A stretch of 64,000 nt of DNA, taken from positions 800,001 to 864,000 of the forward strand of contig CAWKHF010000005.1 in assembly GCA_963849325.1 (NCBI GenBank). The letters run 5' to 3'. The stretch is from an uncultured Planctomycetota bacterium (GTDB taxonomy: Bacteria; Planctomycetota; Planctomycetia; Gemmatales; Gemmataceae). This document shows positions 24,438-47,316 of this stretch, piece by piece. The notes below the pieces were generated by a model. The model was not told the DNA's origin, did not search any database, and worked only from the letters and a program-made list of their open reading frames with translations. The position numbers and the translations under genes were made by a program. Every line of letters begins with the position of its first letter. The first letter of the stretch is position 1.

Positions 24438-25702
24438 TGGACTGCTCCCCAAAAAGTGGTCCAGGTGCTATGAGAGTCTCTGAGGCTCTTCGCGGGCAGG
24501 AGACGAACCATGAAACGACACACGGCCGAAGAGATCATCCCCAAGCTGCGACAAGCCGAGGCCGACCTCGCCCAAGGCTTGACCCTCGCCCAGGTCTGCC
24601 AACGCCTGGCCATTAGCGAGCAGACCCTGCATCGCTGGCGCAACCAGTACGGCGGACTCAAGCAAGACGAGGCCAAACGCCTCAAGGAACTGGAAGCCGA
24701 GAACGCACGCCTCAAGCGTCTGGTCGCGGAACTGGCCCTGGACAAGCAGATGCTCCAGGAGGTCGCCCAAAAAAAGTGCTGAGCGCCGACCAGCGTCGTC
24801 AGGTCGTGCGTCAACTCCAAGAGACCTTCGGCGTGTCGCAACGTCGCGCCTGCCGTGTGCTGAGGCAACCACGCTCCACGCAGCGGCAGACGCCCCAAAC
24901 CGCCGAGGAGGAGGGACGATTGGTGCAGCGGATGTTGGCGATGGTGCGGCAGCATCCGCGTTGGGGCTACCGCCGCATCACGGTGTTGCTGCGGCGGGAA
25001 GGCTGGCGTGTCAACCGCAAGCGGGTGTACCGACTGTGGCGGCAGCAAGGGCTGAAAGTACCCCGAAAGCAGCGAAAAAAACGGCGGCTGGGTCACAGCG
25101 GCAACAGTTGCGTGCGGCGGCCGGCAGAGCACAAGGACCACGTGTGGACGTGGGATTTCTTGCACGATCGGACGAGCGATGGCCGGCCTTTGAAATGGTT
25201 CACGCTGATCGACGAGTACAGCCGCGAGTGCTTGGCGTTGGAGGTGGATCGGGGCATGACGGCCCAGGCGGTGAAGACGGTGCTGGCGAGCGTGGTGCAG
25301 CAGCGTGGCGTACCGATGCACGTCCGCAGCGACAACGGCTCGGAGTTTATCGCCGCCGCCATCCGGACGTGGATGACGGCTGCGGGGTTGGAGACGTTGT
25401 ACATTGCTCCGGGCGCGCCGTGGGAAAATGGCTACGCCGAGTCGTTCAACAGCAAGGTGCGGGACGAGCTGTTGAACACGGAGGAGTTTGGCAGCGTGGC
25501 AGAAGCGAAGGTGCTAGCCAAGGAGTGGCGTCAGGAATACAACCATGTCCGTCCTCACAGTTCGTTGGGGTATCGGACGCCAGCGGAGTTCGGGGAGATG
25601 TGTCCTCGTCCCGACTCCGCTGCGCTACGCCGGGACGAGGACACATCTGTAACGGTTGATCCGACTCTCACAGCGCCTGGTACATAAAATGGGGGCAAGC
25701 CA
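24438..25702 (+). mobile_element. IS3-family insertion sequence, complete copy (1265 bp)
   Basis: Imperfect terminal IRs TGGACTGCTCCCCAAAAAGTGGTCCA / TGGCTTGCCCCCATTTTATGTACCA; TG...CA ends; orfA and orfB. Confidence 0.95.
24510..25687 (+). CDS. IS3-family transposase OrfAB (-1 programmed frameshift)
   Basis: orfA 24510-24782 (HTH), slippery A7G at 24769-24776, orfB to 25687 with DDE motifs WTWDF, RSDNGSEF, ENGYAESFN. Confidence 0.93.
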
Positions 25703-26777
25703 CCTTCGCTTCTGCCACGCTGCCAAACTCCTCCGTGTTCAACAGCTCGTCCCGCACCTTGCTGTTGAACGACTCGGCGTAGCCATTTTCCCACGGTGCG
25801 CCCGGAGCAATGTACAACGTCTCCAACCCCGCAGCCGTCATCCACGTCCGGATGGCGGCGGCGATAAACTCCGAGCCGTTGTCGCTGCGGACCGTGCATC
25901 GGTACGCCACGCTGCTGCACCACGCTCGCCAGCACCGTCTTCACCGCCTGGGCCGTCATGCCCCGATCCACCTCCAACGCCAAGCACTCGCGGCTGTACT
26001 CGTCGATCAGCGTGAACCATTTCAAAGGCCGGCCATCGCTCGTCCGATCGTGCAAGAAATCCCACGTCCACACGTGGTCCTTGTGCTCTGCCGGCCGCCG
26101 CACGCAACTGTTGCCGCTGTGACCCAGCCGCCGTTTTTTTCGCTGCTTTCGGGGTACTTTCAGCCCTTGCTGCCGCCACAGTCGGTACACCCGCTTGCGG
26201 TTGACACGCCAGCCTTCCCGCCGCAGCAACACCGTGATGCGGCGGTAGCCCCAACGCGGATGCTGCCGCACCATCGCCAACATCCGCTGCACCAATCGTC
26301 CCTCCTCCTCGGCGGTTTGGGGCGTCTGCCGCTGCGTGGAGCGTGGTTGCCTCAGCACACGGCAGGCGCGACGTTGCGACACGCCGAAGGTCTCTTGGAG
26401 TTGACGCACGACCTGACGACGCTGGTCGGCGCTCAGCACTTTTTTTGGGCGACCTCCTGGAGCATCTGCTTGTCCAGGGCCAGTTCCGCGACCAGACGCT
26501 TGAGGCGTGCGTTCTCGGCTTCCAGTTCCTTGAGGCGTTTGGCCTCGTCTTGCTTGAGTCCGCCGTACTGGTTGCGCCAGCGATGCAGGGTCTGCTCGCT
26601 AATGGCCAGGCGTTGGCAGACCTGGGCGAGGGTCAAGCCTTGGGCGAGGTCGGCCTCGGCTTGTCGCAGCTTGGGGATGATCTCTTCGGCCGTGTGTCGT
26701 TTCATGGTTCGTCTCCTGCCCGCGAAGAGCCTCAGAGACTCTCATAGCACCTGGACCACTTTTTGGGGAGCAGTCCA
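25703..26777 (-). mobile_element. Second copy of the same IS3, inverted and 3'-truncated
   Basis: Reverse complement of 24438-25511; I noted one substitution and one extra base; lacks the last ~190 bp including the IRR; orfA at 26433-26705. Confidence 0.93.
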
Positions 26778-27010
26778 GTGCGTCACCAAGTCGATTTCGA
26801 GGCCATCGTGAACGCCAGACCTCTCGATGGTCTCCGGGCCGGTACGGAGACCGACGACCTCGTTGAGCGGCAGCATGTGAACGCCGCGTAGATCGAAGTC
26901 GGAATCCGGCGACGGGAAGCCATACAGGTGCGCCCGCTGATGGTGGTGGCGAAGATCAGCCGGTACGGATGCTCCTCGACTTGTTTCTTCAACAGCAGCA
27001 TCGGGATCAT
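26778..27010 (-). pseudogene. Pol-beta nucleotidyltransferase (RlaP/YcgL-like), truncated by IS
   Basis: FAT-ISG-AHLYGFPSPDSDFDLRGVH motif across an indel; cut by the IS end after DLVTH. Confidence 0.8.
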
Positions 27011-27957
27011 GGCAATTCCTCCGACAAGGCCCGACGCCGGGCACGGATGAGGAACGCATTGGCGCGTTCGTAATCAGGGCGTTCGGGCAGCTTCGTGGTT
27101 TCAAATGCCGCGTTGAACTCTTGGTGCAGGCTGTGCCGCCAGTTCTCCACGTCCTCCCACGACACTTCACCGCGCCGGATCGCCAAGAGCCTGTCGCGGT
27201 GGGCATCGACCCTCACCGGAACGATCCCCTCGCGTAGCACTCCGATGCCCGAAAGCAATAGGCGGATCAGGTGCATGACGTGCTTCCATTTCACCTGTCC
27301 GTGGTTCCGAATGTCGGCCTGCATCTTCTTGAACTGGCTCATCACGTAACCGTTGTACGTTTGATACACCAGCCGCGAAAGGAAGCTCGTTCGCATGGCG
27401 ATCAGTTCCTCGGCCAGCGGAGTCGCTTTCTCAACCAGCGGCGTGTAGAGGCACTCCAGCACGTTCGGGTTCGCTTTCAGGGCCAGCACGAGGAACTTCT
27501 GGAGTTCCCAGTACGCTTCCTGCGTCTGGTGGTTTTCCAGTTGCTCAGGGACGCCGTAGAGGGACCAGTGTAGGTCGGCAGTCGGCAAGTAGATGCCTCG
27601 GCGATCCACGTCGGACGCGGTGTCGGCAAGGCCATACGCCTGCGAGCCAATCACACAACGGTAGATGACGCGCTGATACAGGTCCGCGTGGGCGACCGCA
27701 TGGGCGCTGTCACCGATCTCTCCCTCCTTGAACCGGGCGAGCATCGTGACCTCGCTTCGCTTGAGTGGAGCCTCGAAGCCGTCTGGGAAGCGGACTCGGT
27801 AGGAGTGTTCATGGTCGGTCGGCGACTTCACGACGACGCCCACCGTGCCGCGTGGGTGAAGGACGAGGCCAGCGGAGCCGGGAATGTCTACCAGAGTCAC
27901 GACCTGCGTGCCCACGGAGAAGATCAGTTTGGGATGGCAATGCACTCGGTCTGCCAC
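27007..27957 (-). CDS. Pol-beta nucleotidyltransferase (RlaP-like) with extra N-terminal beta domain
   Basis: IGSQAYGLADTASDVDRRGIY (GS..DxD), KANPNVLECL, KHVMHLIRLL, LPERPD. Confidence 0.85.
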   Translation of the reverse strand: MADRVHCHPKLIFSVGTQVVTLVDIPGSAGLVLHPRGTVGVVVKSPTDHEHSYRVRFPDGFEAPLKRSEVTMLARFKEGEIGDSAHAVAHADLYQRVIYRCVIGSQAYGLADTASDVDRRGIYLPTADLHWSLYGVPEQLENHQTQEAYWELQKFLVLALKANPNVLECLYTPLVEKATPLAEELIAMRTSFLSRLVYQTYNGYVMSQFKKMQADIRNHGQVKWKHVMHLIRLLLSGIGVLREGIVPVRVDAHRDRLLAIRRGEVSWEDVENWRHSLHQEFNAAFETTKLPERPDYERANAFLIRARRRALSEELP

Positions 27958-27993
27958 AGCAAAGAACTCCTATCGGTGCAACTCCATCGTTCC

Positions 27994-29316
27994 TCAGCCT
28001 GCCTCAGAAGATCCTGTGGGTTTTTCAACCAGTTTTCGACAATCCTCCGCTGAGTCGAATCGACACTCTTCCCACAGCCATTCGGGAGCCACTTGCTGTT
28101 GATGCAAGAGTCGGGCGGCATCGAATCGGCAGTTCGCGCAGGGCGTTAAGGCGTAGCTGATGACAGCCAGCCGGGAACAATCTGCCTCCGTGTTCTTTTC
28201 AAGAACCTTGATGACATCCATCAGGAGCCAGTGAAGCTCGCACTCGTCGTCGGGCAACTCCATCGCATTCAGAATCAGGTGTTCGTCCCCCTGCCGATTG
28301 TTGTTGATGAACAAGCCGACCACGGACCTGTCTCGTAATCCCTTTTGAAGCTCAGTCAGGGCGAACACCCGGACAAGCGGATGGGCATTCTCCTTCAAGC
28401 CTCTGAAGGCCCATGCGCGGACTTCTTTATCGGCGTGCCGACAGAGTTTGATGAGTTGGGCGTCGAACTCGGGCAGCGGGCGGGCCACAAAGACCTTGAC
28501 CAGATTGGCGATAACTCGTGGTTCCTCCACGGTCCAAAGGCGCTGAAGCACGGCTTTCAGATCCGCTTCCTCGGCGTGCATCCCCCAGCCTCGGAACCAA
28601 TAACATTTGGTGTCGCCTTCGGCTGCTCGGTTGATCTCCTCGACGGGTAAAGCCTTCATCCTTTCCCGGTGCGATTGGGCCTGTTTCACCTCGGCTGCTC
28701 TCTGCTTGTCTCGCCGCCAACATTCCCCGAATCTGCTGACCGCCGTGTCGGAGGGTGCGCTCAACAGGCTGCTGACGCGATCCTCACCGAGACAGTCGGT
28801 GGCTTGGTCGATTAGGCTTCTATCGTCCCAGTCCCATTCACGACATGCCAATTGCTGCCCTCGAACTCTCGCGGCAAAAAGAAATGCCCGTTCGCCATCT
28901 AACGCCATGATCTCTTCCTCTCCGAGCGAAGGACTTTCGGGGAACGGCCTCTGTTCCACGATCTCGTACAGCCGGTCGCGGAAGGTTCCGTCTCCTGTCT
29001 CGGCATAAAAGCGAGCGAGTTCGCAAAGCTGGTTGGCGCTGCGCTCGTCAGACAACTCGTGCAGAGCATGGAGAATCGGTACGCGGAACCGTTGCATGGC
29101 ATCAGCCGCCCCGACGATTTGCCAGAGCCAGCCTGCTCGTGATTCCTCGCATTGGGCGTCGAAACGCTTGTCCTGAAGGCACGCCTCCAAGAGTGGCTCG
29201 TCGCCGAGACGCCCGTTGAGCGCCCATTGCCATGCCCGCCCGAGTCCCTTTTGCAAGGCGTCCCGCTGCTGGTCGAGGGAGGGAGACGACGGTGGGGAAT
29301 AATCGCCGAACTTCAT
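27994..29316 (-). CDS. Alpha-helical (HEAT-like) hypothetical protein
   Basis: ATGA overlap with the upstream gene; helical repeats; ALQKGLGRA N-terminus; PCANCR and ECRFDS C-terminus. Confidence 0.75.
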   Translation of the reverse strand: MKFGDYSPPSSPSLDQQRDALQKGLGRAWQWALNGRLGDEPLLEACLQDKRFDAQCEESRAGWLWQIVGAADAMQRFRVPILHALHELSDERSANQLCELARFYAETGDGTFRDRLYEIVEQRPFPESPSLGEEEIMALDGERAFLFAARVRGQQLACREWDWDDRSLIDQATDCLGEDRVSSLLSAPSDTAVSRFGECWRRDKQRAAEVKQAQSHRERMKALPVEEINRAAEGDTKCYWFRGWGMHAEEADLKAVLQRLWTVEEPRVIANLVKVFVARPLPEFDAQLIKLCRHADKEVRAWAFRGLKENAHPLVRVFALTELQKGLRDRSVVGLFINNNRQGDEHLILNAMELPDDECELHWLLMDVIKVLEKNTEADCSRLAVISYALTPCANCRFDAARLLHQQQVAPEWLWEECRFDSAEDCRKLVEKPTGSSEAG

Positions 29317-30158
29317 GAACTGCCTCCAGAGCAACGTCGTATCGCCTCATCGAGTGTGGTGTCGTCGGCTTCTGCTGATTGCTTCAGCCTCTTCAGGACC
29401 GGAAGAAGGCGTGCATCGGCAATTTCCTCAGCCGCCTCAAGGCTGTAGCTGCCGTATTCCGCGTCAGGGTAGCGCTTTAATTCCTTGATGAGAGGCTCAA
29501 TGACTTGTTGATCTTTTCTGCGTGCAAGTCCCACGAGAGCTTCGCCGCGCGTCACTTCGTCCTCATCGAAAACACGCGCAAGCAGAGCCGCACGGATTAC
29601 GGGTGTGTCTTCGTCAACCTGCGTCCCTAACCCGAAAGTCGCCCAATCTCGCACGAGGTCATTCTGATCTCTCGACAATTCGATCAGCGTCGTAATCGCC
29701 AACTGGCCCTCAAAACCGAGCAGACCGAAGACAACAGCATATCGCACCTTGGCGCTCGGATGCGTCTTCAGCCGGGCCAGCGAAGGAATCGCGGTCGGAT
29801 CGTGGATGTGACCCAGCGCGATGCAGATCGCGTCGAGGACATCTTCGTCGGTTTCGACCTCAAGAAGCTTGAGCAAGACCGCCACCGACTCGTCCGGGGA
29901 GCTTCGGTTCGGGACTCCCAACTGCCCCAGAATGTTCGCCCCCAGCGTTCTCTCCTGCGGACACTCGCTGGCGCAAAGCTGACAGGCAGCGTCGAACACT
30001 TCCCGCGTTCCGCGATAGTGGAGCATCACCACTGCATCCCATGCAGCTTCCTCATCCAGCCCGGTGAGAGCCATCGTAATGAACTCGTGGGTGGTGCGCG
30101 GATCGTCTCGCGCCTCGCGGGTCCGAGACTCGGTATACGCTTTCAGGTCGTCAATCAT
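29313..30158 (-). CDS. HEAT-repeat protein
   Basis: Repeats such as ERTLGANILGQLG, VRYAVVFGL, VRDWATFGLG, TRGEALVGLA; ATGATTGA overlap with the Thg1-like gene. Confidence 0.85.
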   Translation of the reverse strand: MIDDLKAYTESRTREARDDPRTTHEFITMALTGLDEEAAWDAVVMLHYRGTREVFDAACQLCASECPQERTLGANILGQLGVPNRSSPDESVAVLLKLLEVETDEDVLDAICIALGHIHDPTAIPSLARLKTHPSAKVRYAVVFGLLGFEGQLAITTLIELSRDQNDLVRDWATFGLGTQVDEDTPVIRAALLARVFDEDEVTRGEALVGLARRKDQQVIEPLIKELKRYPDAEYGSYSLEAAEEIADARLLPVLKRLKQSAEADDTTLDEAIRRCSGGSS

Positions 30159-30937
30159 GAGCGCACCCCCCATCATTCTCGGCAATCAGCTTCCGCAGGA
30201 ATGCCGAGTAGTCGTCCTTCATGGGCAACTCAAGGTCGCGGCGAATTCGCCTTCTTCGAGCGAACACCTTCTCACCCGTGGCCGGGTTCGCCGCTGGCCG
30301 GTCATACTCCTCCCAGTAGAGCCCGACGCCGCGCTTTTGCCACGCGGGAAGATCATTGAAGTTGATGCCATGCTGGAACAGCAACTCGTTCTTGGCCGAG
30401 ACGGACAGGCCCTTCAGCGCAGCCGTGGCCTCGCCGATGCTCTGGCCCTGCTTCCGCAGCAGCCAGTAGCAGTGGCCGTTGAGCGCATTGCGATGCGCAT
30501 CTTCGCTGCGCCAACGGAAGTAATCGACAACGAGTTCGAGGGAGGGCAACTGCGAGATGCGGCAATCAAAGGACGCCAACGCCCCCAGCAACAGCGAGAA
30601 CTTCGCGCTGGCTTCACCGGCGAGGATCGAGATCAGTTTGCGGAGCTTGCGACCGAAACTGTTCTCCTCCAACCCGAATAGCAGAGAAATCTCGTCGCTC
30701 TCCGTGTAGCCGTAGACCATGTTGAAGTCACAGCCGCTCATCAGGTACTCGGCGGTCTCGACCATCAGGTCGCGGAAACGAGGATCGAACGGAGCCTCAA
30801 ACGAGTGGACCTCCTTTGTCAAGCGCGTGAAGCTGCGGCCATCCAGCCGTGTGACCATGTACAGGCCGGGGAGTACGCAAAGGTCGTGCGCCGTCTCAAA
30901 CACGCCGCATCTTCTGGTCAAGGTCATCAAACTTCAT
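30151..30937 (-). CDS. tRNA(His) guanylyltransferase Thg1-like protein (3'-5' polymerase; indel near codon 12)
   Basis: MKFDDLDQKMR start at 30937; RLDGRSF, YTESDEISLLF, FDCR, DYFRWRSEDAHRNALN. Confidence 0.9.
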
Positions 30938-31249
30938 CTTTCCACTCCTTGACGACGAACTGGTTGCTCTCGTTGATCCGCACGTAATACAGTTCGGCGA
31001 ACCCTTCCTCCTTGCTGGGGATTTGCGTCCGCCCGCGTCCCAGAATGCCTCTCAGCGGGATCTGCTCGACAGGACGCTGCTCGTTGCGGCGCTTGCAGTC
31101 CTCGACTCGGGACTGGAAGTAGTAGCCGATGACCCGAATCCGCTTCTTTCGCGGCTCGATGTACACCTGCCGTTCGGCACGTAGGATTCGTGTTGGTAGA
31201 ACGTCGATTTTCCCCCGCCCTGCAACCCAATAAAGATCACGGCTTCCAC
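30927..31249 (-). pseudogene. AAA_33-type P-loop (polynucleotide) kinase with internal deletion and indels
   Basis: IFIGLQGGGKSTFY Walker A joined almost directly to NTNPT..ERQVYI; RNEQR lid; PSKEEGF tail; stop overlaps the Thg1-like start. Confidence 0.7.
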
Positions 31250-31265
31250 AGTTCAACCTCGTTCG

Positions 31266-32670
31266 TCACTTGGCAAGGTCGAAAATCGCCATCTGCGTCG
31301 GCGGTCCCAGCTTCTCGTCTTCCGGCCCCACCGCTACGAACCGCACCGTATAGGCGAACCGCCCCGCGATTCCCTTCGCCCAGTCCTGAAACTCCTGCCG
31401 CGTCCACTCAAAGCGGTGGTCGGGATGTCGAAAGCACCCGGCCCCCAGCGTCTCCCATTTGACGTTGTACTCCCGATTCGGCGTCGTCAGCACGACCGTT
31501 CGCGGCTTGGCGAACTCGAACAACACCCGCTCGAATGCCGACAACCGTGGCGGATCAAGGTGCTCGACAACCTCGACGACACAGGCGGCGTCGAATCCCT
31601 CCAGCCGCTTATCCCGGTACATTAGGGAGCCGTGGATCAACTTCACACGCTCGGCCTGCTTGGTCGGCAACCGCTCCAGCTTCAGCCTCCGCTGGGCCAC
31701 TTCCAGCGAACGGATCGACACATCCAGTCCCACAATTTCCTCGAACTGCTTCTCTTTCAGAAGCTCGCGGATCAGCTTTCCTTCGCCGCAGCCAAGATCG
31801 AGAACGCGCTTGTCCGCCGCTGATCCGCAAAGCCGCCGTGACGGAACCGAGGCGTTGATCGTTCAAACTCAGCGGCTTTTCCAGCGTGTCTTCGGTCTTG
31901 TCGACTGGCCGCTCGTCCTCATCTGCCTCATGCGGCTCCTCCTCTTGCACGAGACGGGCGATGGCTTCACGGAAGAGACTTGGTTGGAACTTCAGGTAGC
32001 GGCGCGTGATTTCCTCCTTCTCCGGGTGTCCTGCCAGCCAGCCCTCGCCTTTGGCGAGCAGCTTCTCCATCTCATCCTTGCCGATCCAGTAGTGCTTGTT
32101 GTTGTCAAACACCGGGATCAGGACATATAGGTGCGTGAGCAAGTCAGCCAGCGTCGTCGTTTTCTGAACCGTGACCGCAAAGAAGGGACTCTCGCCCCAT
32201 TCGGGGAACCGTTCATCGAGCGGACACCGAATCGCCTCGACTGCGTATCCCAACGGCTCGAAGACATTCCGCAAGAACCGCTCACCGCCGCGCACTGGCA
32301 ACACGTCGAGCCGAGCCAACAGCGGGATCGGCGTTGTCACCAGTTTGGGCCGGTCATTGCAGCGTCCTTGAAGCGCCGAACCGAAGACCTGTGCAATCGC
32401 CACGGACATGAACGATGAAGCGGTGTACGGACGGTCGTTCACGTACTGGGCCAGCAGAAAGCTGGCGTTCGCGTTCTTGCCACGGACTATGCCTATCGGG
32501 TCCACATCGAGCAGCAGGCAGACCGTACACCGCTCGGCGCTGACTTCCGGGTAGAAGACATGGACTTTCCCGAAGCTCAGATCGAATGACTGGAACCTCT
32601 CAGGGTGCTTGTGCAGCAGATAGCCGAGGTCCGAGGCGGGCTGGTGCGTGGTGGTGATCGTCAAGAGCAT
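31266..32670 (-). CDS. hen1: 3'-terminal RNA ribose 2'-O-methyltransferase Hen1 (indel near 31820)
   Basis: MLLTITTT..DLGYLLHKHP and YVNDRPY N-terminal domain; LDLGCGEG SAM motif; EVVEHLD; RHPDHRFEW. Confidence 0.93.
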
Positions 32671-32851
32671 TCAGGTATCCTTCACCTTCGGCACGAACCT
32701 GCGTCGGCTTTTTGGTGTCAATCGGTGGATCGCCCGTTTCACTGGCCGTTTTCGGAGGCACAACCCATGAGTCCCATTCATCTTATTCCTCACACGACAC
32801 GCTGCCGTACCCGGTGGTTCACTCTGACAATCCGTTCACGACGCGAGCTAT

Positions 32852-34342
32852 ATGGACCGAGACAACCGCAAACCGAAGAAGGATCTCACCGAAGAGCTTA
32901 ACCCGGACCTCCTCACCCACATCAGGTCGCTTGGCCTCACCGGCGTCGAGGACTACATCGCGTGGTGCGCCGAGCACGGTTTCAGCCGCCGCACGGACAA
33001 GCACTGGCGACTCCGCTTGAAGGAGCGGACCTACGCCACCCGCGCCATCGCCGATGCCCGCCTTGCCCAAAAGAAACAAGAACTCAGAAAGCCCGAAAAG
33101 ATTATCCAGAGGATCTTCAACGGCGAGCTTCACGAGGATGATGTCACCCAGCCTCACTTGAAGGCGGTCTGCCGGGCGTGCAAATCTGCACAAGAATCGC
33201 GTCGAACTCGGCTCGCCTTTCACGACCTCCTGCAACACGTCGGCATGTGCTCCGACCTCGTAAATTGCCAGCCCGTGATCTCGCAGTATGGTTGGCAAGC
33301 CGGGAATACCTTCGTGGATGGCCTGCTGGCGTTGGCCCGGCACTCACGAAACTGGACTCGCCCGGTCGCCGATTGGAAGCCCCAGACGCACAACACGCGC
33401 CGCCAGTTTTCCTCACTGGCGCGGCACTTGTTCGCCGAGTGGCCGGTTCCCCCTTTCATGGATTCCGTCTGGTTCTTGGGGAACAGCAGAGCAGCCGTCC
33501 AGCAGCAAGGCTGGTTTCTGCACATCGGCAGAGGGCAGAACATTCGCACGGCGGATCTCCCGCTTCCCTACACGAAGCGCATGGCTCACCACTTTATGCA
33601 AGCTCCTTCTGACCTCACGGTCGAGGCGGCGCTGCGCTGGGGCCAGATCCACGGACTCGGCGGCTCGGAGCGTCTGGTGCGAGCCATCATGGGAACGCGC
33701 CTCGGCACGGACTTCGAGCACGATGATTTCTGGATCACCGTGTTCCAGTTCTTTATCGCCAATCCGATGCTTGATCTGGCTCAGGTCGGCCCGCTCATCG
33801 ACTACATCCACCAGCAGCGGTTTGTTTCGCAAGACGGGTTCATTGCTCCCGGTGTCGTCGAACGCCGAGGACCGGCGCAGCCGAACTTCACGATGAAAGG
33901 ACGCACGCCCGCGTCCTTGCTGCGGCAGGTGGACTCATGGCATAAGTCGCTGGCGAAGGTGCAGCAGCCGAAAGCCGAGTGGCCTCCCTCGGGGACTCCA
34001 ACATTCGAGTTCATCGAAGGGGGAGAGAAAAGTGGCAATTTGAAGGTCTGGACAATCACCGAACTGCTCAGCACCAAGGCGCTCGTCGCCGAGGGCCGAA
34101 AGATGAAGCATTGCGTGGCAACTTACGCCCATTCGTGCGCCAGCGGAGATTGCTCCATCTGGACGTTAGAGGTCGAGACGTTCGAGGGACGCTCCAAGAT
34201 ACTGACCATCGAGGTACAGACCGCAACGAAGTTGATTTGTCAGGCACGAGGGAAGTGCAACATGCTCCCCGGCGACAAGCACCGTGGCATCCTGCGCCGC
34301 TGGGCTGAGCAGGCGCGACTCCAGTTGGCGAAGCATGTGTAG
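32852..34342 (+). CDS. PcfJ-like domain protein
   Basis: ELLSTKALVAEGRKMKHCVATY..CSIWTL..LTIEV..QARGKCN C-terminal PcfJ signature; NFTMKGRT. Confidence 0.85.
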   Translation: MDRDNRKPKKDLTEELNPDLLTHIRSLGLTGVEDYIAWCAEHGFSRRTDKHWRLRLKERTYATRAIADARLAQKKQELRKPEKIIQRIFNGELHEDDVTQPHLKAVCRACKSAQESRRTRLAFHDLLQHVGMCSDLVNCQPVISQYGWQAGNTFVDGLLALARHSRNWTRPVADWKPQTHNTRRQFSSLARHLFAEWPVPPFMDSVWFLGNSRAAVQQQGWFLHIGRGQNIRTADLPLPYTKRMAHHFMQAPSDLTVEAALRWGQIHGLGGSERLVRAIMGTRLGTDFEHDDFWITVFQFFIANPMLDLAQVGPLIDYIHQQRFVSQDGFIAPGVVERRGPAQPNFTMKGRTPASLLRQVDSWHKSLAKVQQPKAEWPPSGTPTFEFIEGGEKSGNLKVWTITELLSTKALVAEGRKMKHCVATYAHSCASGDCSIWTLEVETFEGRSKILTIEVQTATKLICQARGKCNMLPGDKHRGILRRWAEQARLQLAKHV

Positions 34343-34548
34343 GAGGCCGTCAATCCTCGTTCGCTTATGCCGCCAGCATCCGAAGGTGGTATTGGCTTCC
34401 TCCTCAAACCGCCACACTACTTTCCCTGAACAGGTCCACTGCCGCAGTCTTCGTCTGCTCGTGGATCGAGCGGGCTGCGGTGTTGCCTTTTTAGTACACG
34501 CTCGGTACAACGCGAATAGGTACTCGCTCCATTGCAAGGGTGAATGCC

Positions 34549-34875
34549 ATGCGTTTCGGCGAAAAGGTCCGTTCCCTGCGAACGGCGAAGAGCCTTAGCC
34601 TGCGTGCGCTGGGCCAGCGGCTCGGCGTCTCCTACGCCTACATCAGCAAGGTCGAGAACGGCAAACTCGCCTTCGGCGACTACCCCAGCGAAGACCTGAT
34701 CCGCAGGCTCGCCGCCGCGCTCGACGCCGACGAGGAGGAACTTCTCCTGCTCGCGGAGAAAATCCCCGAGCCGATCCGACGCCGGTGTTTCGAGCGCCCC
34801 GACGCCTTCCGGCTGATCGCCCGGCTGGATGACAAACGGCTCGACCGGGTGCTCGCCTTCATCAAGGATGGCTGA
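34549..34875 (+). CDS. XRE-family HTH regulator
   Basis: FGEKVRSLR..LSLRALGQRLGVSYAYISKVENG. Confidence 0.9.
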   Translation: MRFGEKVRSLRTAKSLSLRALGQRLGVSYAYISKVENGKLAFGDYPSEDLIRRLAAALDADEEELLLLAEKIPEPIRRRCFERPDAFRLIARLDDKRLDRVLAFIKDG

Positions 34876-35005
34876 GGAGCATGGCGGTGGACCGGCACTC
34901 CCTTGAGAAGATGCTGGCCGGGTTGCAGGGGTGAACGGCGTGATGTCGGTGGCGTCATACTGAGGCCCGTGGCCTCTGGCGACTGGCCCGTTGGAGGGAC
35001 GAACG

Positions 35006-35650
35006 ATGAGCCAAAACCCGGAAGTCCGGCTGGCGGGAACGGCACTCGGTCGTTCCCGGCACGTCTGCGCCTTCTTCCACACGAAGGATGAGGAGTACAA
35101 GGTACTCCTGCCCTTCATCAAGGAGGGCTTCGAGCAAGGTGACAAGGCGTTCCACATCGTCAAGGAGGACCACCGGCCCGAGCATCGACGGCGGCTGCAA
35201 CGGGCGGGTATCGCCGTGGACGAGGCCGAGCGAAAGGGACAACTGGAGGTCCGCCGCTGGGAGGATGCCTACCTGCGGGAAGGCCACTTTGACCAGAACC
35301 GGATGCTCGCCTTGATCGAGGAAGTCCTCCAAGGCGGCAAGGTGCAGGGCTACCGGATTACCCGGCTGGTCGCCAACATGGAGTGGGCGTTGGAGGACCG
35401 CCCCGGCGTGGACGACATCGTGGAGTACGAAACGCGCCTGAACTACGTCCTGCCGAAGTACGACGACGCCGTGTGCTGAACGTATGACTTGCACCAGTTC
35501 GGTGCAGAGGTCGTCATGGACATCATGCGGACGCACCCGATGGTCATCATCGGCGGCATCCTGCAAGATAACCCGTTCTTCGTGCCGCCCGATGAGATGT
35601 TGCGGGAACTGCGGGAACGTCGAGGCCGAAACCGCGTGACGGATCAGTAA
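35006..35650 (+). CDS. MEDS-domain sensor protein, 214 aa if the in-frame TGA (codon 158) is read as selenocysteine
   Basis: RHVCAFF, YLREGHFD, RLVANMEWAL, EYETRLN MEDS motifs; AVC-TGA-TYD continues in frame as RTHPMVIIGG..NPFFVPP to TAA 35648-35650, which overlaps the next ATG. Confidence 0.8.
35484..35514 (+). promoter_or_regulatory. Putative bacterial SECIS element
   Basis: Upper stem TGCACC/GGTGCA with loop AGTTC beginning 16 nt after the TGA; lower stem ATGAC/GTCGT. Confidence 0.65.
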
Positions 35651-38600
35651 TGCACACGCCAGAGAACACCTTGGAAGAGAACCGCCACCTGCGGCGGACG
35701 ATGCGGGACTTGGTTGCCCTCTCGACCCTGCCTGCCGTCTGGACCGGCCTGAGTCCAGACGGCATCGTCCGCAGCTTGGCTGACGTGCTGCTGAACACCC
35801 TGTCGCTCGAACTGATTTACGTCGCGGCTGGAGGGTCTGGGCGGGAACGGCGTGGTCGAAGTCGTCCGCAACAAGCGTGGCCTCGACGCAGAACACGTCC
35901 AAGCGGTGAAGGCATCGCTCGCCCCAGTGCTGGGGGCCAACCGTTCCGACTCGCCTCTCACGATCCCCGATCCGTTCGGCGCTGGGACGTTGCACATTGC
36001 CATTACCCGGTTCGGCATTGCTGACGACCACGGGGTTCTGATCGCAGGTTCCCGGCGTGCCGATTTCCCATCCGAGCGGGACCGGCTGCTGCTCAGCGTC
36101 GGGGCTAACCAGACAGCCATCGTCATCCAGAGAAGGCGGGCCGAAGAGGAGGTTAGAGAGCAGCAAGAGCGGCTGCGAACGACGCTCGCCTGCATCGGGG
36201 ATGCCGTCATCGCCACCGACAGGATGGGGCGCATCACCACAATGAACGCCGTGGCCGAGTCGCTGACCGGCTGGGCAAAAGAGGAGGCGACCGGCCAGCC
36301 GCTTGACGCAGTATTCCGCATCGTGAACGAGGAGACACGCCAGACGGTCCCCAACCCCACGACGAGGGCGATACGGGAGAGCATCGTCGTCGGGCTGGCG
36401 AACCATACTGTCCTCATCGCCAAAGACGGTACGGAGCGGTTCATCGACGACAGTGCCGCCCCGATCCGGTGCAAGGAGGGCCAGATCATCGGCTGCGTGC
36501 TGGTCTTCCGCGACGTGTCCGAGCGGCGACGGTTAGAGCAGCAGAAGGCCGAGCAGGGTAGAGCCGCACGCAGGTTAGCGGCCATTGTGGACTCCTCGGA
36601 GGACGCCATCATCAGCAAAACGCTGGACGGGATCATCCAGAGTTGGAACGCCGCCGCCGAGAGGGTCTTCGGCTATACCGCCGAGGAAGCCGTGGGGCGT
36701 CCCATTACCATGCTCTTCCCCACTGACCGCCTCGATGAAGAAGACAGGATCATTACCCGCATCCGGGCAGGGCAGCGGGTGGAACACTTCGACACGGTGC
36801 GGCGGCGAAAGGACGGGACGACCATCCCGGTTTCCCTGACGATCTCACCCATCAAGGATGAAGAGGGGCGGATCATCGGGGCGTCGAAGATCGCAAGGGA
36901 CATCACCGAGCGGAAGCGGGCCGAGGAAGCCAACGCCAAACTCGCCGCGCTGGTGGAGTCCTCCGACGATGCCATCGTGAGCAAAAACCTCAACGCCATC
37001 ATTACCAGTTGGAATCGGGGCGCGGAGCGTATGTTTGGCTACACGGCACAAGAAGCGATTGGGCAGCCTGTTACCATGCTCATGCCCCCGGAGCGCGTCG
37101 ATGAAGAGCCGAACATTCTGCGCGCATCCGTCGCGGCGAGAAGATCGACCATTACGAAACGATCCGTCGCCGCAAGGACGGCACGCCGCTGACCATCTCC
37201 TTGACCGTTTCGCCGATCTTCGACGGCCACGGCAACATCATCGGTGCGTCGAAGATCGCGCGCGACATCACTCGCCGTAAGCAGGCCGAGGAGCGGCTGC
37301 GGCTGCTCTCGGAGGCGGCGGCGATCATCCTCTACGCCCCCGATCCGACTGCCCTGATGCGGACGCTGTTCGCCAAGATCGGCCCGACCATCGGGGCCGA
37401 CGTTTGCCTCAACTATCTGGTGAACGATGCTGGCGACGGCCTGCGGCTGGCGTCGTGCGTCGGCGTCTCCGAAGAGGCGTTGCCGCCCCGGCTGGTGTTC
37501 GGGGAAACCCTGTGCGGCACGGCGGCTCTACACCGCCAGCCCGTCGTCGTGGCCTACGTTCAGCAGTCCGACGAATCGAAGGCACGAGCGTACAAGTTGC
37601 TCGGCGTGCGGGCCTACGCCGGGTTCCCGATGCTGTCCGGCAACCTACTGCTCGGCACTTTGTCCTTCGCCACCCGGTCGAAGGACGAGTTTGCCCCTGA
37701 CGAACTAGAGTTTCTGGAAGCGATCTGCCGCTACGTCGCCGTGGCCTACGAGCGGCTGCGGCTGGTGGAGAAACTGCGGCAGGCCGACCACAAGAAGGAC
37801 GAGTTCTTGGCGACACTGGCCCACGAACTCCGCAACCCGCTCGCCCCGATCCGCAACGGCCTGCAACTGATGCAGATGGCGGGCGGGAAGGTCGAGACGG
37901 TCGATCAGGCCCGCACCATGATGGAGCGGCAGGTCGTGCAGATGGTGCGGCTGGTGGATGACCTGATGGACCTGACTCGCATCAGTCGGGGCAAGATCGA
38001 ACTCAAGAAGCAGCCGGTCGAACTGGTGGCAGTGGTGAACAGTGCGGTTGAGATAGCCCGCCCGCTCATCGAGGAGATGGGCCATGAACTGACCGTCCTG
38101 CTGCCTGAGCAGCCGATCATCTTGGAAGCCGACTCGACCCGGCTGACACAGGTGTTCTCGAACCTGCTCACCAACGCCGCCAAGTACACCGACCGAGGCG
38201 GTCGCATCTTGCTGACCGCCGAGCGGCAGGGGAGCGACGTGGTTGTGGCGGTGAAGGACACGGGCATCGGCATCCCCGCCGACAGGTTGCGGAGCATCTT
38301 CGAGATGTTCTCGCAGGTGGAGGCGGCGCTGTCCCGGTCGCAGGGCGGGTTGGGCATTGGCTTGTGTCTGGTGAACCGATTGGTGCAGATGCACGGCGGC
38401 TCCATCGAAGCCGAGAGCGAGGGTCCGGGGCGGGGGAGCCGGTTCGTCGTCCGCTTGCCGCTCGCCGTTGAACAGTGTGAAGCCAGCGTAACCGGCGACA
38501 ACGCCGAAGCGGCGAAGGCGACCTCCAAACTTCGCATCTTGGTGGTGGACGACAACCGGGACGCCGCCGAAAGTTTGGCGATGCTGCTCAAGATCATGGG

Positions 38601-38898
38601 CAACAACGTCCGCACGGCCAGCGACGGCGAGAAGGGGGTGCAAGCGGCGGCTGAGTTCCGGCCCCATGTCATGCTGATGGACATCGGCCTGCCGAAGTTG
38701 AACGGCTACGGGGCGTGCCGCCTCATTCGTCAGCAGGCGTGGAGCAAGAATATGGTAATCATCGCTGTGACCGGCTGGGGTGCGGATGAGGACAGGCGTA
38801 AGTCTCAGGAGGCAGGCTTCGACTATCACATGGTCAAGCCAGTGGACCCGACCTCGTTGATGAGGCTGCTGGCCGACCTGAGCGTTGTGAAGGCATGA
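35650..38898 (+). CDS. Hybrid sensor histidine kinase (3 PAS, GAF, HisKA, HATPase, REC; indels near 35826 and 37125)
   Basis: PAS repeats (DAIIS..WNAAAERVFGY), LAHELRNPL, NLLTNAAKY, DTGIGI, GLGIGL, ILVVDD..MDIGLP..KP. Confidence 0.9.
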
Positions 38899-40384: not shown

Positions 40385-42516
40385 TCAAGAGCTATTGCCA
40401 GCGTAGATCGCCTGAATTAAAGCATAAATGACAGATTTCTCTTCGTCTGGGCGACTACGAAACTCTTTTTTTGTGGTCATTCTTATCAGTTTGTTGACAA
40501 GAAAAGGCAGGCTGAAGCGGCCTTTAAGCTGATCGATATTCGCGTCAACCTGACGCTGCTCGTAGTAGTCCATCCCACTAGAAGGTTTTATTCTCACATA
40601 CTCGCACAAATAGTGGATAAGTGCATCATCGTCTTCTACCACTTTCTCCATAAAATCCGCGATTTCCTTATTATCTCTGTCAGCAATTTGTTCCCAGTAA
40701 TTGAGAATCGCGCAAATCCGTGGATGCTTCAGTAGTCGTCCATCAGCCGCCCATGTGGCAATTTTTTCGTTCATGAACCGCCTCGCATCTGCGCTTCCCG
40801 CAAGATACTTTTGACACATCAAGATCGGGATTAAAAGGCTCTTCGAAGAAGTCGCAGCCGCTTCCTCGATTGCATAACTGGGTTTGCTCTCGGGACCGTA
40901 GCGAAAGATCACTTGGTTGATTATGTCCATCACAAGTTGCGTTGTCGGAATGTCAAGGCTTCTCTCCTCTTCGGATGCGGAGCTTTCGTCGAACACATCA
41001 CCTAAATCAGCAAGCGCCATAATGAGGTTTGCGGCAATGTCATCAGAGACAAGTCGTGAATCTACATAACCCCAGAGAGTTTCCAATAACCGCCTAGCAC
41101 GGCCTTCGTTATTCAGGACTAATAGGCCACCAGCTAGCGCCTCGCAAATCAGTTGCATTTGTCAGGAGCCTTTCAATTTCGCTCCTCTCCAAATCTCCCC
41201 TCGGCAGAGAAAGGCTGAAGAACAGATCAAAATTGGTGGGAAAGCAGAATCCTTCCCTCTCTCCTCCACTGAGGCTGTGGCGTGTAATCGAGAACGCCCC
41301 CTTGTTTCTGTTCAGTAACAATTTTGTTAATCTTCGGAAATAGAAGCTGTAATATCGTAAGAGGATGGTTGTCCGATTTGCCCTTCTGCGATTTAACGAT
41401 TTCGTTAAGCGTGGCGACTGCATTTTGCATGATGATGTAATAAGGACTGCTTTCTTCTTTGGATGTCTGCCGAGTGAGAAACGTCTTGTTGGCGGCGAGG
41501 GCCTCGTAGATCGCAGGCTCAAATAGTTGAAGAACGGTGATGCCAATTAAGTCGGTCGGCGACAATCCTCCTCTCGCAGTGTTGAAGTTGAAGGACAAGA
41601 CGTTCAGATACCGCTTTGCTTCCCGAAGATCGGCGATGTAAGGTTTCACACCATACTGGAACACGTTTCGCAAATGATTTTGGTCGTATTCTTCAGTCTT
41701 CACTCTGTCCATCAGTTCCCGAATGGAACGCTGCAAAAACCTATGCACTTCCACGACGGGAATCTCGGGCACTCTGAACGGGACTTGGACGATCTTCTCC
41801 AAGAACGCCTCTCCGCTCTGGATTTGCACCCCCGCCAGTTGCTCTGCCACCATCTTCTCATCGAACGCCAACAGATAAACCGTGTTGGGGAAGTTCGCCA
41901 ACGACTTCACCACTTGGAACAGTTGCCGGGCCTCGGTAGCGCTCAATCGGTCGATCTCGTCAATGATGATGATCAGCTTGTGCGGTTGTTTGGCAAGTGC
42001 CTCGTCGATGTTCCGCTTTTGTTTTTCGATGCTCTCTGCCCCCGTCACAAACCCCGCGAGCCATTTGTTGAACCAATTAGCCAGCTTCAACAATCCGCCG
42101 ATGATCTTCCCCTCCGGGGTGGGGATCAGTCCCATCGGGGTAAGGTAATCCGAGTAAGTCTCCAACAGCCTTGACGTTTTCCTGATCCCTAGTGACGTGT
42201 TCCACTTGCCCAGCACGCCTAACATTTCGTCAAAGAACCTGTATATCAGGACGGTTTCGTCCGTCACCATCCAAGGGTTGAACTCGATGACAATCGGCTG
42301 TTCTTCCTTCCGTATTCCCCTGATCTTCTCCGCGAGACACTCCCTCGCCATTCGGAGTATGGAGGACTTCCCCGAACCCCACGGACCCAACAGCCCGATC
42401 ACCAACGGCGACTTGTCGGGACGGGACACGAGGGCCTGCGCCAGCGAGTCGGCGAACTTTTTTCGACAAAGAATGTCTTCGGCAGAAGAGCGGATCGGTT
42501 CGTCATCCAGAAACAC
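40385..42516 (-). CDS. KAP-family P-loop NTPase (indels near 41160-41240)
   Basis: DEPI..DIL.R..FA..LA, GPWGSGKSS, EFNPW, IIIDEIDRL, FLEKIVQVPF; visibly lower GC. Confidence 0.9.
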
Positions 42517-42525
42517 GTCACCCTC

Positions 42526-43394
42526 CTACCTCGGCAACAGATCATGCTTCCTCGCCTTCTCGACGAGATAGTTGACGAACCCCGAGCAGGACACCAGCAT
42601 GAACATGGCGTCCTCGGCCTCTGGCTCCTCATCGTCCTTGAGGGCGTGACGGATGCCGTGCGTATCGCTCGTGTAGCCGTACAACGCCTTGAACGCCTCT
42701 TGCAGCTTCGGATGGAGGTTCGTCCGTGCCTTCACCGCGTCAAGGGCCGGTCCCAGAGTTGCCCTTTCGTTCTGAGCGATGATCTTGCAAATGGCCTCAA
42801 CCGCCGAGATCGACTCTTTCATGGAGTTTCGGTAATCTGGCTTCTTCCTGTCGGCGAGCAGCTTGAGCGCTGTGCCGATGTGTTGGCTCACGGGCGCATC
42901 AGGCTCGTGTCCAGAGAAGCTGCCTTCTCGATGGCCTTGATCTCAGCCTCGCTGGTGATCGGAGTGAGCGTGCCGTTGACGAAGCGGTACGCCGAAAACT
43001 CCCGTTCCAGAACACGGTTGCAGGCGCTTTGGAACGTCACAGCCCACGCTCGGAGATCATCCCCGAGTTCTGCAACGAACTGCACGAAGTCGTAGATCCT
43101 GTTCCAAGGAACCTTCTCATTGAAATACCACTCCCTCACGGTCCTGAAGGCAAAACTCGGATCGTCGTAAAGCGAATCCAGCGGCCATTTGAAGAAGTGA
43201 ACCCACAAATTGACAAGTAGCGTCCCTGAGTGCCCGTCTCGACTCCGGGGTGATAGCCCCCATCCTCGTTTGATCGGCGATAAGATCAGTAGCTCGAAGA
43301 CGTTCCAGAGGCTATTTCGCAAATCCCAGTCCATCGAGTTCTTCTGCAACGCTTTCGTGGCCGGTTCCAGACCGATCCGCTGCGAGAAGTTCAT
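42526..43394 (-). CDS. AbiJ-NTD4-type protein with HEPN-like C-terminal domain (one indel near 42891)
   Basis: FSQRIG..DLRNSLWN, WNRIYDFVQF, NRVLERE..YRF; C-terminal DYRNSMKESISAVE..LYGYTSDTHGIRHA. Confidence 0.75.
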
Positions 43395-43555
43395 ACGGCA
43401 TCTCCGTTGAACATAGGAACACTATCGCCATTATCCTTTCGGACACGGCAGGTGCAAGGTCGGTTCACGAACTTCTGTGGCTTCGATTCGTTTGTGGGAT
43501 CAGGATTTACGGCTTGGGAGACGAAAGCGGCTGGCTGGTGGTTGCCAGCGTCTGT

Positions 43556-45369: not shown

Positions 45370-47316
45370 ATGAGCGAGCGCGCGCAGACCGGTCCTTTGA
45401 ATCCTCTGCACTGGTTCCCCGAGTTCTGGCAACTCGGCCGGCGCCGAACTGCGTCCACAGGCGCGTTTGCTGGGACTCTCTCTATGCGTGGGCGTCATCG
45501 CGGGATTGGGCGCCGTGGTGTTCTACCTGGCCACGCGGCTGGTCTTCCATTACGCCCTCGACGTCCTGGTCGGCTACCACGCCGGTGGTCCCGCCAACGA
45601 ACCGCCGCTGTTCCCGGAAACCACCGAGCCTTTGCGCTGGTGGCTGCTGCTGATCGTGCCGGCGATGGGCGGCCTGGTCAGCGGGTTTCTCGTCTACACG
45701 TTCGCTCCGGAGGCAGAGGGGCACGGCACGGATTCGGCCATCGCGGCGTATCACTTCAAGGGCGGACAGATTCGGCCGCGCGTACCGCTGGTGAAGATCC
45801 TCGCCAGTGCGGTGACGCTGGGCACGGGCGGCTCCGGCGGCCGCGAAGGACCGATTGCGCAGATCGGCGCCGGCTTCGGTTCGTGGCTGGGCGGACTGCT
45901 GCGCTTGCGGCCGGCCGAGCGACGCTTGCTCATGGCCGCCGGCATGGGCGCCGGCATCGCCGCCATCTTCCGCGCCCCGCTGGCCGGCGCCCTCTTCGCC
46001 GCCGAGGTGCTGTACCGCTCGCCCGACTTCGAGTCGGAAGTCGTCATCCCCGCGGCGCTGGCCTGCATCACCGCCTACTGCACGTTCGGCCTGATCTTCG
46101 GCCACTGGACCGCGCCTGGGCTGGAGTTCGCTCTTCGACCTGCCCCCCGCTCTGGCAGGCTCGATCACTTTCACCAATCCGCTCCACTTGCTCCCCTACC
46201 TGGTGCTGGCCCTGTTCATGGTCGTGCTGGCCATGCTGTACACGCGCAGCTTCTACGGCCTGACGGAGTTGTTCCGGCGCATCCCCATCCGCCCGCACTT
46301 CAAGCCAGCTATCGGCGCGTTTCTGTCCGCGGTCGTGGCCCTGGTCCTCTATTTCGTCCTGGGAAAAGTGCGGGTCTTCAGCGGTGCTGTCCTTCGGCTA
46401 CGGCATCCTGCAAGACAGCTCTGACACGCTGCCCGGCGGAGTCCGAGGACCTGTCGTCTGGCCGTGCTGTTGTTGGCCGTGGCGGTGGGCAAGATCGTGA
46501 CGACGGGGTTGACGATCGGCAGCGGCGGCTCCGGCGGCGTGTTCGGTCCCTCGATGGTGATTGGCGGCTGCGGCGGCGGCGCGCTGGGCATCCTTCTCAA
46601 CCGCGTCTTCCCACCCGGCCTACATGCCGCCGCCGACCAGCTTCATCATCGTCGGCATGGCTGGCTTCTTCGCCGCCGCCGCCAAGACGCCGCTCTCCAC
46701 CCTCGTCATGGTCAGCGAGTTGACCGGCAATTATAATCTGCTATTGCCGAGTTTGTGGGTCTGCACTATCGCCTTTTTGTTGTCCGACGAGCAATCCATC
46801 TACAGCTCGCAGGTGCAGAGCCGTTCGCGCTCGCCGGCCCACCAGGGCGCCTATGTCCGCGAAGTGTTGACCGGCCTGTACGTTCGCTCTTTCATCACGC
46901 CCTTGCGCGACGTACCGTTTCTCCATCCCGGCGATCGCGTCGCCGAGGTGATCGAGCGGTTGAGCAGTAGCCCGTTCCAGGCGGTGCCGGTGATCGATTC
47001 GGACGAACACCTTCTCGGCGTCGCCACCGTGGAGGAGGTGCTTCTGGCATCGCAGTCGCCGCACCTGCGCTCGCTGCTGGTGGCGATGGACCTGATGCGC
47101 GAGGTCATGCCCTTGTGCCCCGACGATCCGCTCGATCAAGCGATGGAGCTGTTCGTCGAAAGCGACCTGCTGGCCCTGCCGGTGGTCGATGGCCTGGGCA
47201 GCAAGCGCGTCCTGGGCATCGTCAAGCGGGCCGACCTGTCCGGGACGTACCTGCGGCAGCTCCAGGGCACGCAGCCGCCCACCATGCCGCCGATGACCGA
47301 CGCCGTGCCGCGGTAG
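45370..47316 (+). CDS. ClC chloride channel protein with CBS domains (several indels)
   Basis: PEAEGHG, GSGGREGP, FRAPLAG, GSGGVFGPS motifs; C-terminal CBS pair. Confidence 0.9.

Follow-up and report, generated by a model that had tools for sequence, protein, structure and literature searches.

An in-frame TGA in a Gemmataceae MEDS-domain gene: comparative evidence for a probable selenoprotein sensor paired with a histidine kinase

Is the single TGA inside an otherwise open frame of a Gemmataceae genome a stop codon, a defect of the assembly or a codon for selenocysteine (Sec)? The question arises at positions 35006-35650 (plus strand) of the window, the 64,000-nucleotide (nt) stretch analysed here (contig CAWKHF010000005.1, positions 800,001 to 864,000, of assembly GCA_963849325.1 from an uncultured Planctomycetota bacterium). 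A stand-alone, EtnR2-like MEDS-domain gene starts there at an ATG at 35006, and its product would be 214 amino acids (aa) long if the TGA at 35477-35479 (plus strand) were read as Sec at residue 158. Comparison with relatives indicates that the TGA is very probably decoded as Sec, and we consider the fuller explanation, a genuine selenoprotein acting as a kinase-paired sensor, likely as a whole.

The TGA column in MEDS homologues

The codon directly 5' of the TGA is TGC (Cys157, 35474-35476), and 3' of it the frame continues for 56 codons (TYDLHQFG...MRTHPMVIIGG...NPFFVPP) up to a TAA at 35648-35650, which overlaps the ATG of a histidine kinase gene at 35650 (TAATG). A first-pass annotation made from the letters of the window had drawn this layout, together with a hairpin 3' of the TGA, and all of its elements are present in the sequence. 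The match to PF14417 (MEDS) scores 147.4 bits against a curated cut-off of 29.8 and aligns profile positions 1-161 of 161 with residues 18-178; because it runs across the TGA, the TGA lies inside one single domain. The 56 residues after the TGA are conserved in nine of nine aligned proteins. On the other hand, the TAATG overlap is peculiar to this assembly: in a 96%-identical contig of another run, one base is missing at 35621, without which the MEDS stop would fall 10 nt upstream of the kinase ATG, and close relatives have a short spacer between the MEDS stop and the kinase start, with no overlap. A reassigned genetic code was considered and rejected: TGA terminates 10 of the 15 Pfam-bearing frames in the window, and thus the code is standard.

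When the read-through protein was used as query against 61 related genomes, nine genomes matched at 11 places. Seven of these places have exactly one TGA, namely the window itself and six orthologues from five other genera (75-83% identity), and on translation their TGAs align in one column with the pattern ...DDAV[C/V]-U-TYD. The 64%- and 55%-identical homologues carry no TGA and have TGC at that column. selA is present in all seven TGA-bearing genomes (the host and the six others). A scan of 185,579 species-representative genomes, with an alignment of nine proteins (A1) as query, confirmed 561 relatives. From these the top 80 were retained, and 74 of the 80 bear the exact anchor motif (L045, L065, L088, L094, L099 and L100 were left out). 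Among these 74, the exact column is TGA in 62, TGC in 11 and TGT in one. The orthologues are 67-92% identical to the window protein, and the Cys forms are all continuous full-length frames. The first-pass annotation had proposed looking for such a TGA/Cys alternation among homologues, and it is there (62 TGA against 12 TGC or TGT). Because three of the six related-genome orthologues are identical to species-representative rows (L021=L046, L017=L035, L020=L039), the counts from the two sets are not additive.

At the level of protein clusters, a profile search of 1.84 billion 50%-identity cluster representatives returned 8,772 family members with an E-value up to 0.001, 1,045 of them at E <= 1e-30, and columns were counted on the best 150 representatives (158 aligned stretches). 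Column 158 is Cys in 137 of 138 and is the best-conserved position of the family; column 177 is His in 132 of 133, column 19 is His in 126 of 131 and column 21 is Cys in 113 of 132, while Trp127 and Tyr160 are likewise strongly conserved. The earlier proposal that Sec replaces a conserved MEDS Cys is thus borne out, and the motif V-I-C-T-Y-D, which had been given for MEDS homologues, was found as PVICTYD in several Cys homologues. The lone non-Cys residue at column 158 is a W followed by F-G-A, as is typical of TGA forms, and is probably a TGA miscalled as Trp. Eight of the 150 representatives terminate exactly ahead of column 158, as expected of Sec forms shortened by gene callers. Two metagenome proteins, P0004 and P0260, are full length with G and W respectively at the Sec column, and in both the next residues are F-G-[AG], as is characteristic of TGA forms; possibly a gene caller translated their TGA under another code. 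In the source records examined, such proteins are named 'hypothetical protein' or 'DcmR-like sensory protein', or their calls are shortened to 157 residues.

Across the 62 TGA loci the residue preceding Sec varies: 25 have Cys there, 21 Ile, 9 Thr and 7 Val. With Cys before Sec in only 25 of 62, the C157-U158 pair, put forward earlier as the redox element of the protein, did not hold as a family feature and was rejected as a functional unit. A different Cys accompanies Sec throughout: Cys21 (codon at 35066-35068, plus strand; motif R-H-V-C-A-F-F), the sole Cys that is always present with Sec. The HxCAFF motif with Cys21 was found in 69 of 69 Sec forms, 29 of which have no other Cys.

In a protein tree of 83 rows (69 Sec/TGA and 14 Cys) built with the Sec column excluded, the Sec forms make up one side of a single branch (Shimodaira-Hasegawa-like approximate likelihood ratio support 83), corresponding to one change. 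They come from at least nine phyla by the labels of metagenome-assembled genomes: Planctomycetota, Acidobacteriota, Pseudomonadota, Myxococcota, Gemmatimonadota, Armatimonadota, Binatota, Eisenbacteria and Dormibacterota. Since this one-branch Sec side covers at least nine phyla, the TGA has been retained over long divergence. The mixing of Sec forms across phyla, as labelled, suggests horizontal spread.

The TGA was also compared with contigs of relatives from other public runs (best run <=0.33 of sampled words), a comparison in which some rows are unlisted and uncovered parts carry no interpretation. A contig of 6,103 nt with ~96% identity covers the TGA at depth 18 without a listed difference. 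The TGA is bridged as well by contigs of two RNA libraries from the rhizosphere, in which some DNA may be present.

A hairpin that accompanies the TGA, and the selenium machinery of the host

The candidate bacterial Sec insertion sequence (bSECIS) at 35490-35506 (plus strand) is a hairpin, TGCACC-AGTTC-GGTGCA, with a stem of 6 base pairs (bp; 35490-35495 with 35501-35506) and a 5-nt loop, AGUUC (35496-35500). The loop begins 16 nt past the TGA, and its positions 2-3 are G-T. A bSECIS model given in a recent review (PMC13188914) places a loop of 3-9 nt on a stem of 4-16 bp, with a G within the first two loop positions, at 16-37 nt from the UGA and with a minimum free energy of <= -7.5 kcal/mol. 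The window hairpin agrees with this model in all four constraints, with a 27-nt folding energy of -11.8 kcal/mol. A scan of 34900-35800 with Rfam at E <= 10 gave two chance-level matches and no SECIS family.

Do other TGA forms carry an equivalent? The 69 TGA rows reduce to 58 distinct 48-nt stretches, which were compared with the 14 Cys rows. All 58 contain a 5-7 bp hairpin that starts 10-11 nt 3' of the TGA and has a loop of 4-6 nt, whereas the Cys forms reach no more than 3 contiguous pairs and an equivalent hairpin was found in none of the 14. The stems occupy three registers (30, 9 and 19 sequences), and G21, U22 and U23 (numbered from the U of the UGA) are invariant in TGA forms. Within the window's register, pair 17:27 is A-U in six, G-C in two and U-G in one, a covariation in which the second base of a His/Arg/Leu codon is offset by the third base of a Gly codon. 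Folding energies over 27 nt range from -7.6 to -14.7 kcal/mol (mean -10.7) in TGA forms and from -1.9 to -7.0 kcal/mol (mean -3.8) in Cys forms (Mann-Whitney U = 0, which overstates independence as the sequences are related). At the position of the Gly that supplies the 3' arm in TGA forms, the Cys forms mostly have Ser, Asp or Glu. Thus the SECIS hairpin claimed in the first-pass annotation has its counterpart in every distinct TGA form and in no Cys form, and the covariation that it had proposed as a check was seen at pair 17:27.

The machinery for Sec insertion, another check proposed earlier, was found in the host genome: selA (in broken frames), selB, selC as tRNA-Sec, and selD. SelA matches sum to ~446 bits, spread over three frames (E 1e-80, 2e-32 and 2e-15; contig C12 of the host assembly, 1294197-1295291), the SelB wing domain matches at 69 bits, SelD at 387 bits and tRNA-Sec at 72 bits, the last in agreement with ARAGORN (tRNA-SeC with anticodon tca). 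The host FdhA gene (C10:540688-543804) itself has one in-frame TGA (...ARI-U-HSASVPG) with a 7-bp hairpin 3' of it, loop GGUCU; FdhA is a canonical selenoprotein and can serve as a control. SelA was found in 55 of the 61 relatives and in 35 of the 36 from the same family; the large majority carry it in a single frame with scores of 400-500 bits, and few besides the host have it in fragments.

Broken frames are common in this assembly, whose completeness is 84.69%: single-base frameshifts occur in many genes, and within the window they lie at 35822 and 37105-37189 (both in the kinase) and in 45401-47313, 31269-32670 and 26745-27969, in genes that include a CLC channel, Hen1 and RlaP. The extra base at 35822, which breaks the kinase, is missing from contigs of two other runs. 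Because of the completeness, the many frameshifts, the single-frame selA of most relatives and the absence of this base elsewhere, the breaks in selA, the kinase and the other genes are read as probable assembly indels, probably long-read errors.

Could the TGA then be one more defect, introduced by faulty sequencing or by a nonsense change in a gene under decay? The completeness of the assembly and the frameshifts in selA, the kinase, the CLC channel, Hen1 and RlaP would fit such an explanation, but across many assemblies and phyla the TGA recurs at one column (62 of the 74 anchored relatives), no difference is listed where contigs of other runs span it, the 56 codons downstream are conserved as protein and the hairpin is restricted to TGA forms; we give error or decay next to no weight. 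A single contaminant copied across assemblies is likewise disfavoured, by identities of 67-92% and by differing flanks. A true stop would leave a MEDS protein of 157 residues, perhaps with a separate C-terminal peptide (from a TTG at 35489) or with occasional readthrough that inserts another residue. Gene callers do predict 157-aa proteins, and a 53-codon open reading frame (ORF) exists at 35489-35650; yet such a stop would fall within a beta-strand, breaking up a single domain that is continuous in every Cys form, and would coincide with the most conserved residue of the family; a SECIS-type hairpin co-occurs strictly with the TGA, and the hosts have the Sec machinery. Termination at the TGA is therefore very improbable in our judgement, and decoding as Sec is the reading that we carry forward.

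A number of points weigh against Sec decoding or lessen the force of its evidence. The case is comparative only. RNAalifold, applied to the codon-aligned 48-nt stretch of the 58 TGA forms, yielded no consensus hairpin (-0.33 kcal/mol), as the stem occupies three registers, and the register groups were themselves defined from the pairing. Within its own GC-rich ORF the window hairpin is the 22nd most stable of 618 windows; the case for SECIS rests on comparison because this hairpin alone is unexceptional in stability. The G-U-U is also under coding constraint (Lys/Gln/Arg, then Phe), and the loop stands 2 nt nearer to the UGA than in the SECIS of the host fdhA. Sec and Cys forms share ancestry, and the statistics overstate their independence. 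Finally, selA lies in three frames in the host assembly, and if that break is real, the strain would be unable to decode the TGA.

As a separate observation on the same ORF, 27-nt windows at ORF offsets 25-29 (window ~35031-35061) fold at -14.5 to -18 kcal/mol, exceeding the stability of the SECIS hairpin.

The kinase partner and the proposed sensing residue

What might a MEDS selenoprotein do? The gene that follows it, at 35650-38898 (plus strand), encodes a hybrid histidine kinase with an N-terminal domain of ~180 aa, three PAS domains, GAF, HisKA, HATPase_c and a receiver. Two frameshifts (~35822 and 37105-37189) spread it over three frames in this assembly, with Pfam matches on 35816-37189 and 37105-38895. 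Counting ORFs of >=500 aa that start between -49 and +100 nt from the MEDS stop, such a gene was found at 51 of the 74 loci. Fifty of the 51 bear PAS/GAF and/or kinase domains; HATPase_c is present in 42 and a receiver in 32. Several of the ORFs run off the end of their locus, and the one without a match is at L042. The coupling of the MEDS gene to a PAS/GAF hybrid kinase, as first noted from the window, is thus a recurrent arrangement: a kinase lies directly downstream in 50 of 51 scored loci and is usually a hybrid.

The first ~160-190 residues of these kinases have no Pfam match and form one conserved domain across 22 kinases from Sec and Cys loci (for example L027:3643-4197, L102:3630-4214 and window 35650-~36200). 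The domain has a helix pattern like that of GAF at its C-terminal end and often an L-R-R-C motif. Its match to the N-terminus of EtnR1, the signalling partner of EtnR2, is weak (hhalign probability 19%). Prediction of a complex from alignments of the Cys-form MEDS protein and the kinase N-terminal domain (score 0.01, mark 0.32) speaks neither for nor against binding. In five further cases, L024 (G029:C4:1194140-1194727), P0137, P0142, P0183 and P0237, MEDS stands at the start of a longer frame (593-1171 aa); by their sequences these may be sensor-kinase fusions.

Beyond the kinase no conserved third gene was found: 24 loci were compared upstream and 15 downstream, and the genes all differ. The functional unit is therefore the MEDS-kinase gene pair. 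A DJ-1 gene and a CurA-like remnant, cited earlier as a hint of carbonyl and electrophile detoxification, do adjoin in the window, but a DJ-1/ADH_N_2 gene lies downstream in none of the 15 other loci and the upstream genes are all different, so that these neighbours are uninformative on function. The suggestion that the pair sits on a mobile element has only circumstantial backing, namely IS3 copies 8-10 kb upstream, among defence and RNA-repair genes, and a tree that mixes at least nine phyla.

The wider surroundings in the window are as follows. Two adjacent, inverted transposase units of the IS3 family (HTH_Tnp_1 + rve) lie at 24474-26741, the second with a broken integrase. They are followed on the minus strand (26745-32670) by an RNA-repair-like cluster of RlaP (DNA polymerase beta family), a HEAT-repeat protein, a Thg1-like tRNA-His guanylyltransferase and Hen1 (ligase-associating region and methyltransferase). 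Just upstream of the MEDS gene are a PcfJ-like ORF (32828-34339) and an XRE-type helix-turn-helix (HTH) protein (34495-34872). A KAP-family P-loop NTPase beside an AbiJ N-terminal domain 4 protein (41230-43421, minus strand) resembles a defence island.

The fold of the MEDS protein was modelled with AlphaFold2 (AF2; predicted local distance difference test 83, predicted template modelling score 0.77). In the AF2 model, strands run over residues 19-24, 47-52, 80-84, 119-124 and 155-161, and comparison with KaiC, FlaH, SSO2452, PH0284 and other RecA-superfamily chains gives template modelling scores of 0.53-0.63. Sec158 is placed mid-strand, in the strand after a Walker-B-like strand. No Walker A P-loop (G-x4-G-K-[ST]) was found in the 214 residues, the first strand being followed by F-F-H-T-K-D-E-E, and a sequence search of the PDB with the MEDS protein gave a best match of E 0.095. 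In the additional-strand catalytic-E (ASCE) class the strand order is 5-1-4-3-2. By this order, the strand of Sec158 would adjoin the first strand, which bears His19 and Cys21.

From these elements we propose the following mechanism. SelB with Sec-tRNA(Sec) would bind the hairpin at 35490-35506 and insert Sec at the UGA of 35477-35479, yielding the 214-residue MEDS protein. Sec158 would substitute for a near-invariant Cys halfway along a beta-strand, in a KaiC/RecA-like fold that has lost its P-loop, with His19, Cys21, Trp127, Tyr160 and His177 as the conserved residues around it. The MEDS protein would be the sensing half of a two-gene module, the other half being the downstream kinase, usually hybrid and always with the family-specific N-terminal domain. 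A small electrophile or oxidant may then modify Sec (or Cys in the Cys forms), possibly with resolution by Cys21, and selenium would raise the reactivity. We hold with fair confidence that the MEDS protein is a sensor partner of the kinase, physical contact between the two being presumed.

The chemistry is proposed more tentatively. Cys/Sec is put forward as the reactive sensing residue because ethylene oxide and dichloromethane, the inducers known for studied MEDS regulators, are small alkylating agents; homology to EtnR2 thus lends independent support to the electrophile-sensor idea of the first-pass annotation, with the sensed chemistry argued by analogy. Covalent sensing of an electrophile or oxidant by Sec158 is accordingly offered as a possibility, held somewhat short of an even chance. 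More doubtful still is its strongest form, a first Sec-based signal sensor in which Sec158, as a strong nucleophile, would covalently capture oxidants or soft electrophiles (epoxides, alkyl halides, peroxides), and its modification would switch a two-component phosphorelay.

Two other roles for Sec158 deserve consideration. It might be a ligand, with His19, His177 and Cys21, of a metal or metal cofactor, so that the sensor would report metal or gas binding. The top conserved residues are indeed two His and two Cys (H19, H177, C158 and C21), a set typical of metal sites, and Sec is a metal ligand in both formate dehydrogenase and [NiFeSe] hydrogenase (as given in PMC13188914); but the convergence of the four residues in space is a prediction, and the only studied relatives respond to organic electrophiles, EtnR2 to ethylene oxide and DcmR to dichloromethane (PMC11197473). 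We regard a metal site as a serious candidate, albeit an unlikely one. Alternatively, Sec158 and Cys21 might form a reversible selenylsulfide, making the protein a redox switch for peroxide or disulfide stress and not an electrophile sensor. The constancy of Cys21 in Sec forms, often as their sole Cys, agrees with this, as do the positions of Cys21 and Sec158, each three before the end of strands that would be adjacent by the ASCE/RecA order, and the fact that known selenoproteins are mostly redox proteins (PMC13188914). Against it, 19 of the 132 cluster representatives lack Cys21 and still have Cys158, and the proximity of Cys21 and Sec158 comes from the strand order only; a selenylsulfide switch is conceivable and would not be our first expectation. 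These last two points count equally against a resolving role of Cys21 in covalent sensing, to which must be added that the neighbourhood beyond the kinase gives no functional hint and that the words 'cysteine' and 'covalent' are both absent from the main text of the EtnR2 paper (PMC11197473).

Novelty and likeness to known systems

Is the family already catalogued? Table 1 of a review from May 2026 (PMC13188914) catalogues selenoproteins of prokaryotes in 119 families, among them no MEDS, DcmR or sensor-kinase-linked entry. No MEDS selenoprotein appears in the main texts of BSepDB (PMC13326102) and deep-Sep (PMC12013277), whose family lists sit in supplements. A literature search returned no paper combining 'MEDS domain' and 'selenocysteine', and 'selenoprotein sensor' phrases returned nothing relevant; PF14417 does appear in two papers on archaeal two-component systems, as listed by the search. 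NCBIfam release 20 holds no matching selenoprotein model, the RsbA match being below threshold. To judge from the sequence comparisons, the MEDS selenoprotein with its histidine kinase partner is almost certainly a real and widespread family that is unlisted in the catalogue texts examined.

If so, selenium would be found in the input module of a two-component system, whereas catalogued families are mostly enzymes, transporters and redox proteins (PMC13188914). The family would be common yet hidden, occurring in soil and rhizosphere bacteria of at least nine phyla under calls cut to 157 residues or the uninformative names noted above, and selenoproteome surveys of Acidobacteriota and Planctomycetota may miss it. 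Sec would also point to a functional residue of the MEDS domain, including that of EtnR2-type epoxide biosensors; were the covalent-trap reading true, it would identify the residue with which the MEDS family as a whole senses its signals, EtnR2 and DcmR among them.

EtnR2 of Mycolicibacterium chubuense NBB4 is the closest studied relative (36% identity over ~190 residues, hhalign E 5e-39). It is likewise a stand-alone MEDS protein of ~200 residues, its gene lies 10 nt upstream of that of its signalling partner EtnR1, and it shares H-V-C-A-F, W-A-L-E and T-H-P, retaining His19, Cys21, Trp127 and His177. A reporter built on EtnR1/EtnR2 answers ethylene oxide, the limit of detection being 0.2 uM, and requires both genes (PMC11197473). 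The two systems differ in three respects: i) EtnR2 has Cys and not Sec at the Sec column; ii) EtnR1 is a GAF/PucR-type DNA-binding activator, while the partner in the window is a histidine kinase; iii) the etnR genes belong to an alkene catabolic cluster, while the MEDS-kinase module has no conserved neighbours. Other MEDS regulators, of the DcmR and RsbA types, have the Pfam domain in common with the window protein. DcmR, the dichloromethane sensor, carries its own HTH (PMC11197473), which the window protein lacks, and the match to RsbA_anti_sig (NF041045) stays below threshold at 56.8 bits against a cut-off of 210.

In fold, the window protein is predicted to be like the KaiC/RecA ATPases, with weak profile matches to SSO2452 and KaiC (E 0.1-0.2), but it has no Walker A and is 12-18% identical to them. 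With catalogued selenoproteins of the FdhA type it shares the in-frame UGA, homologues with Cys at that column, a hairpin 16 nt downstream with a G at loop position 1 or 2, and a host with selABCD; one difference is that the window protein would be a signalling sensor and not an oxidoreductase.

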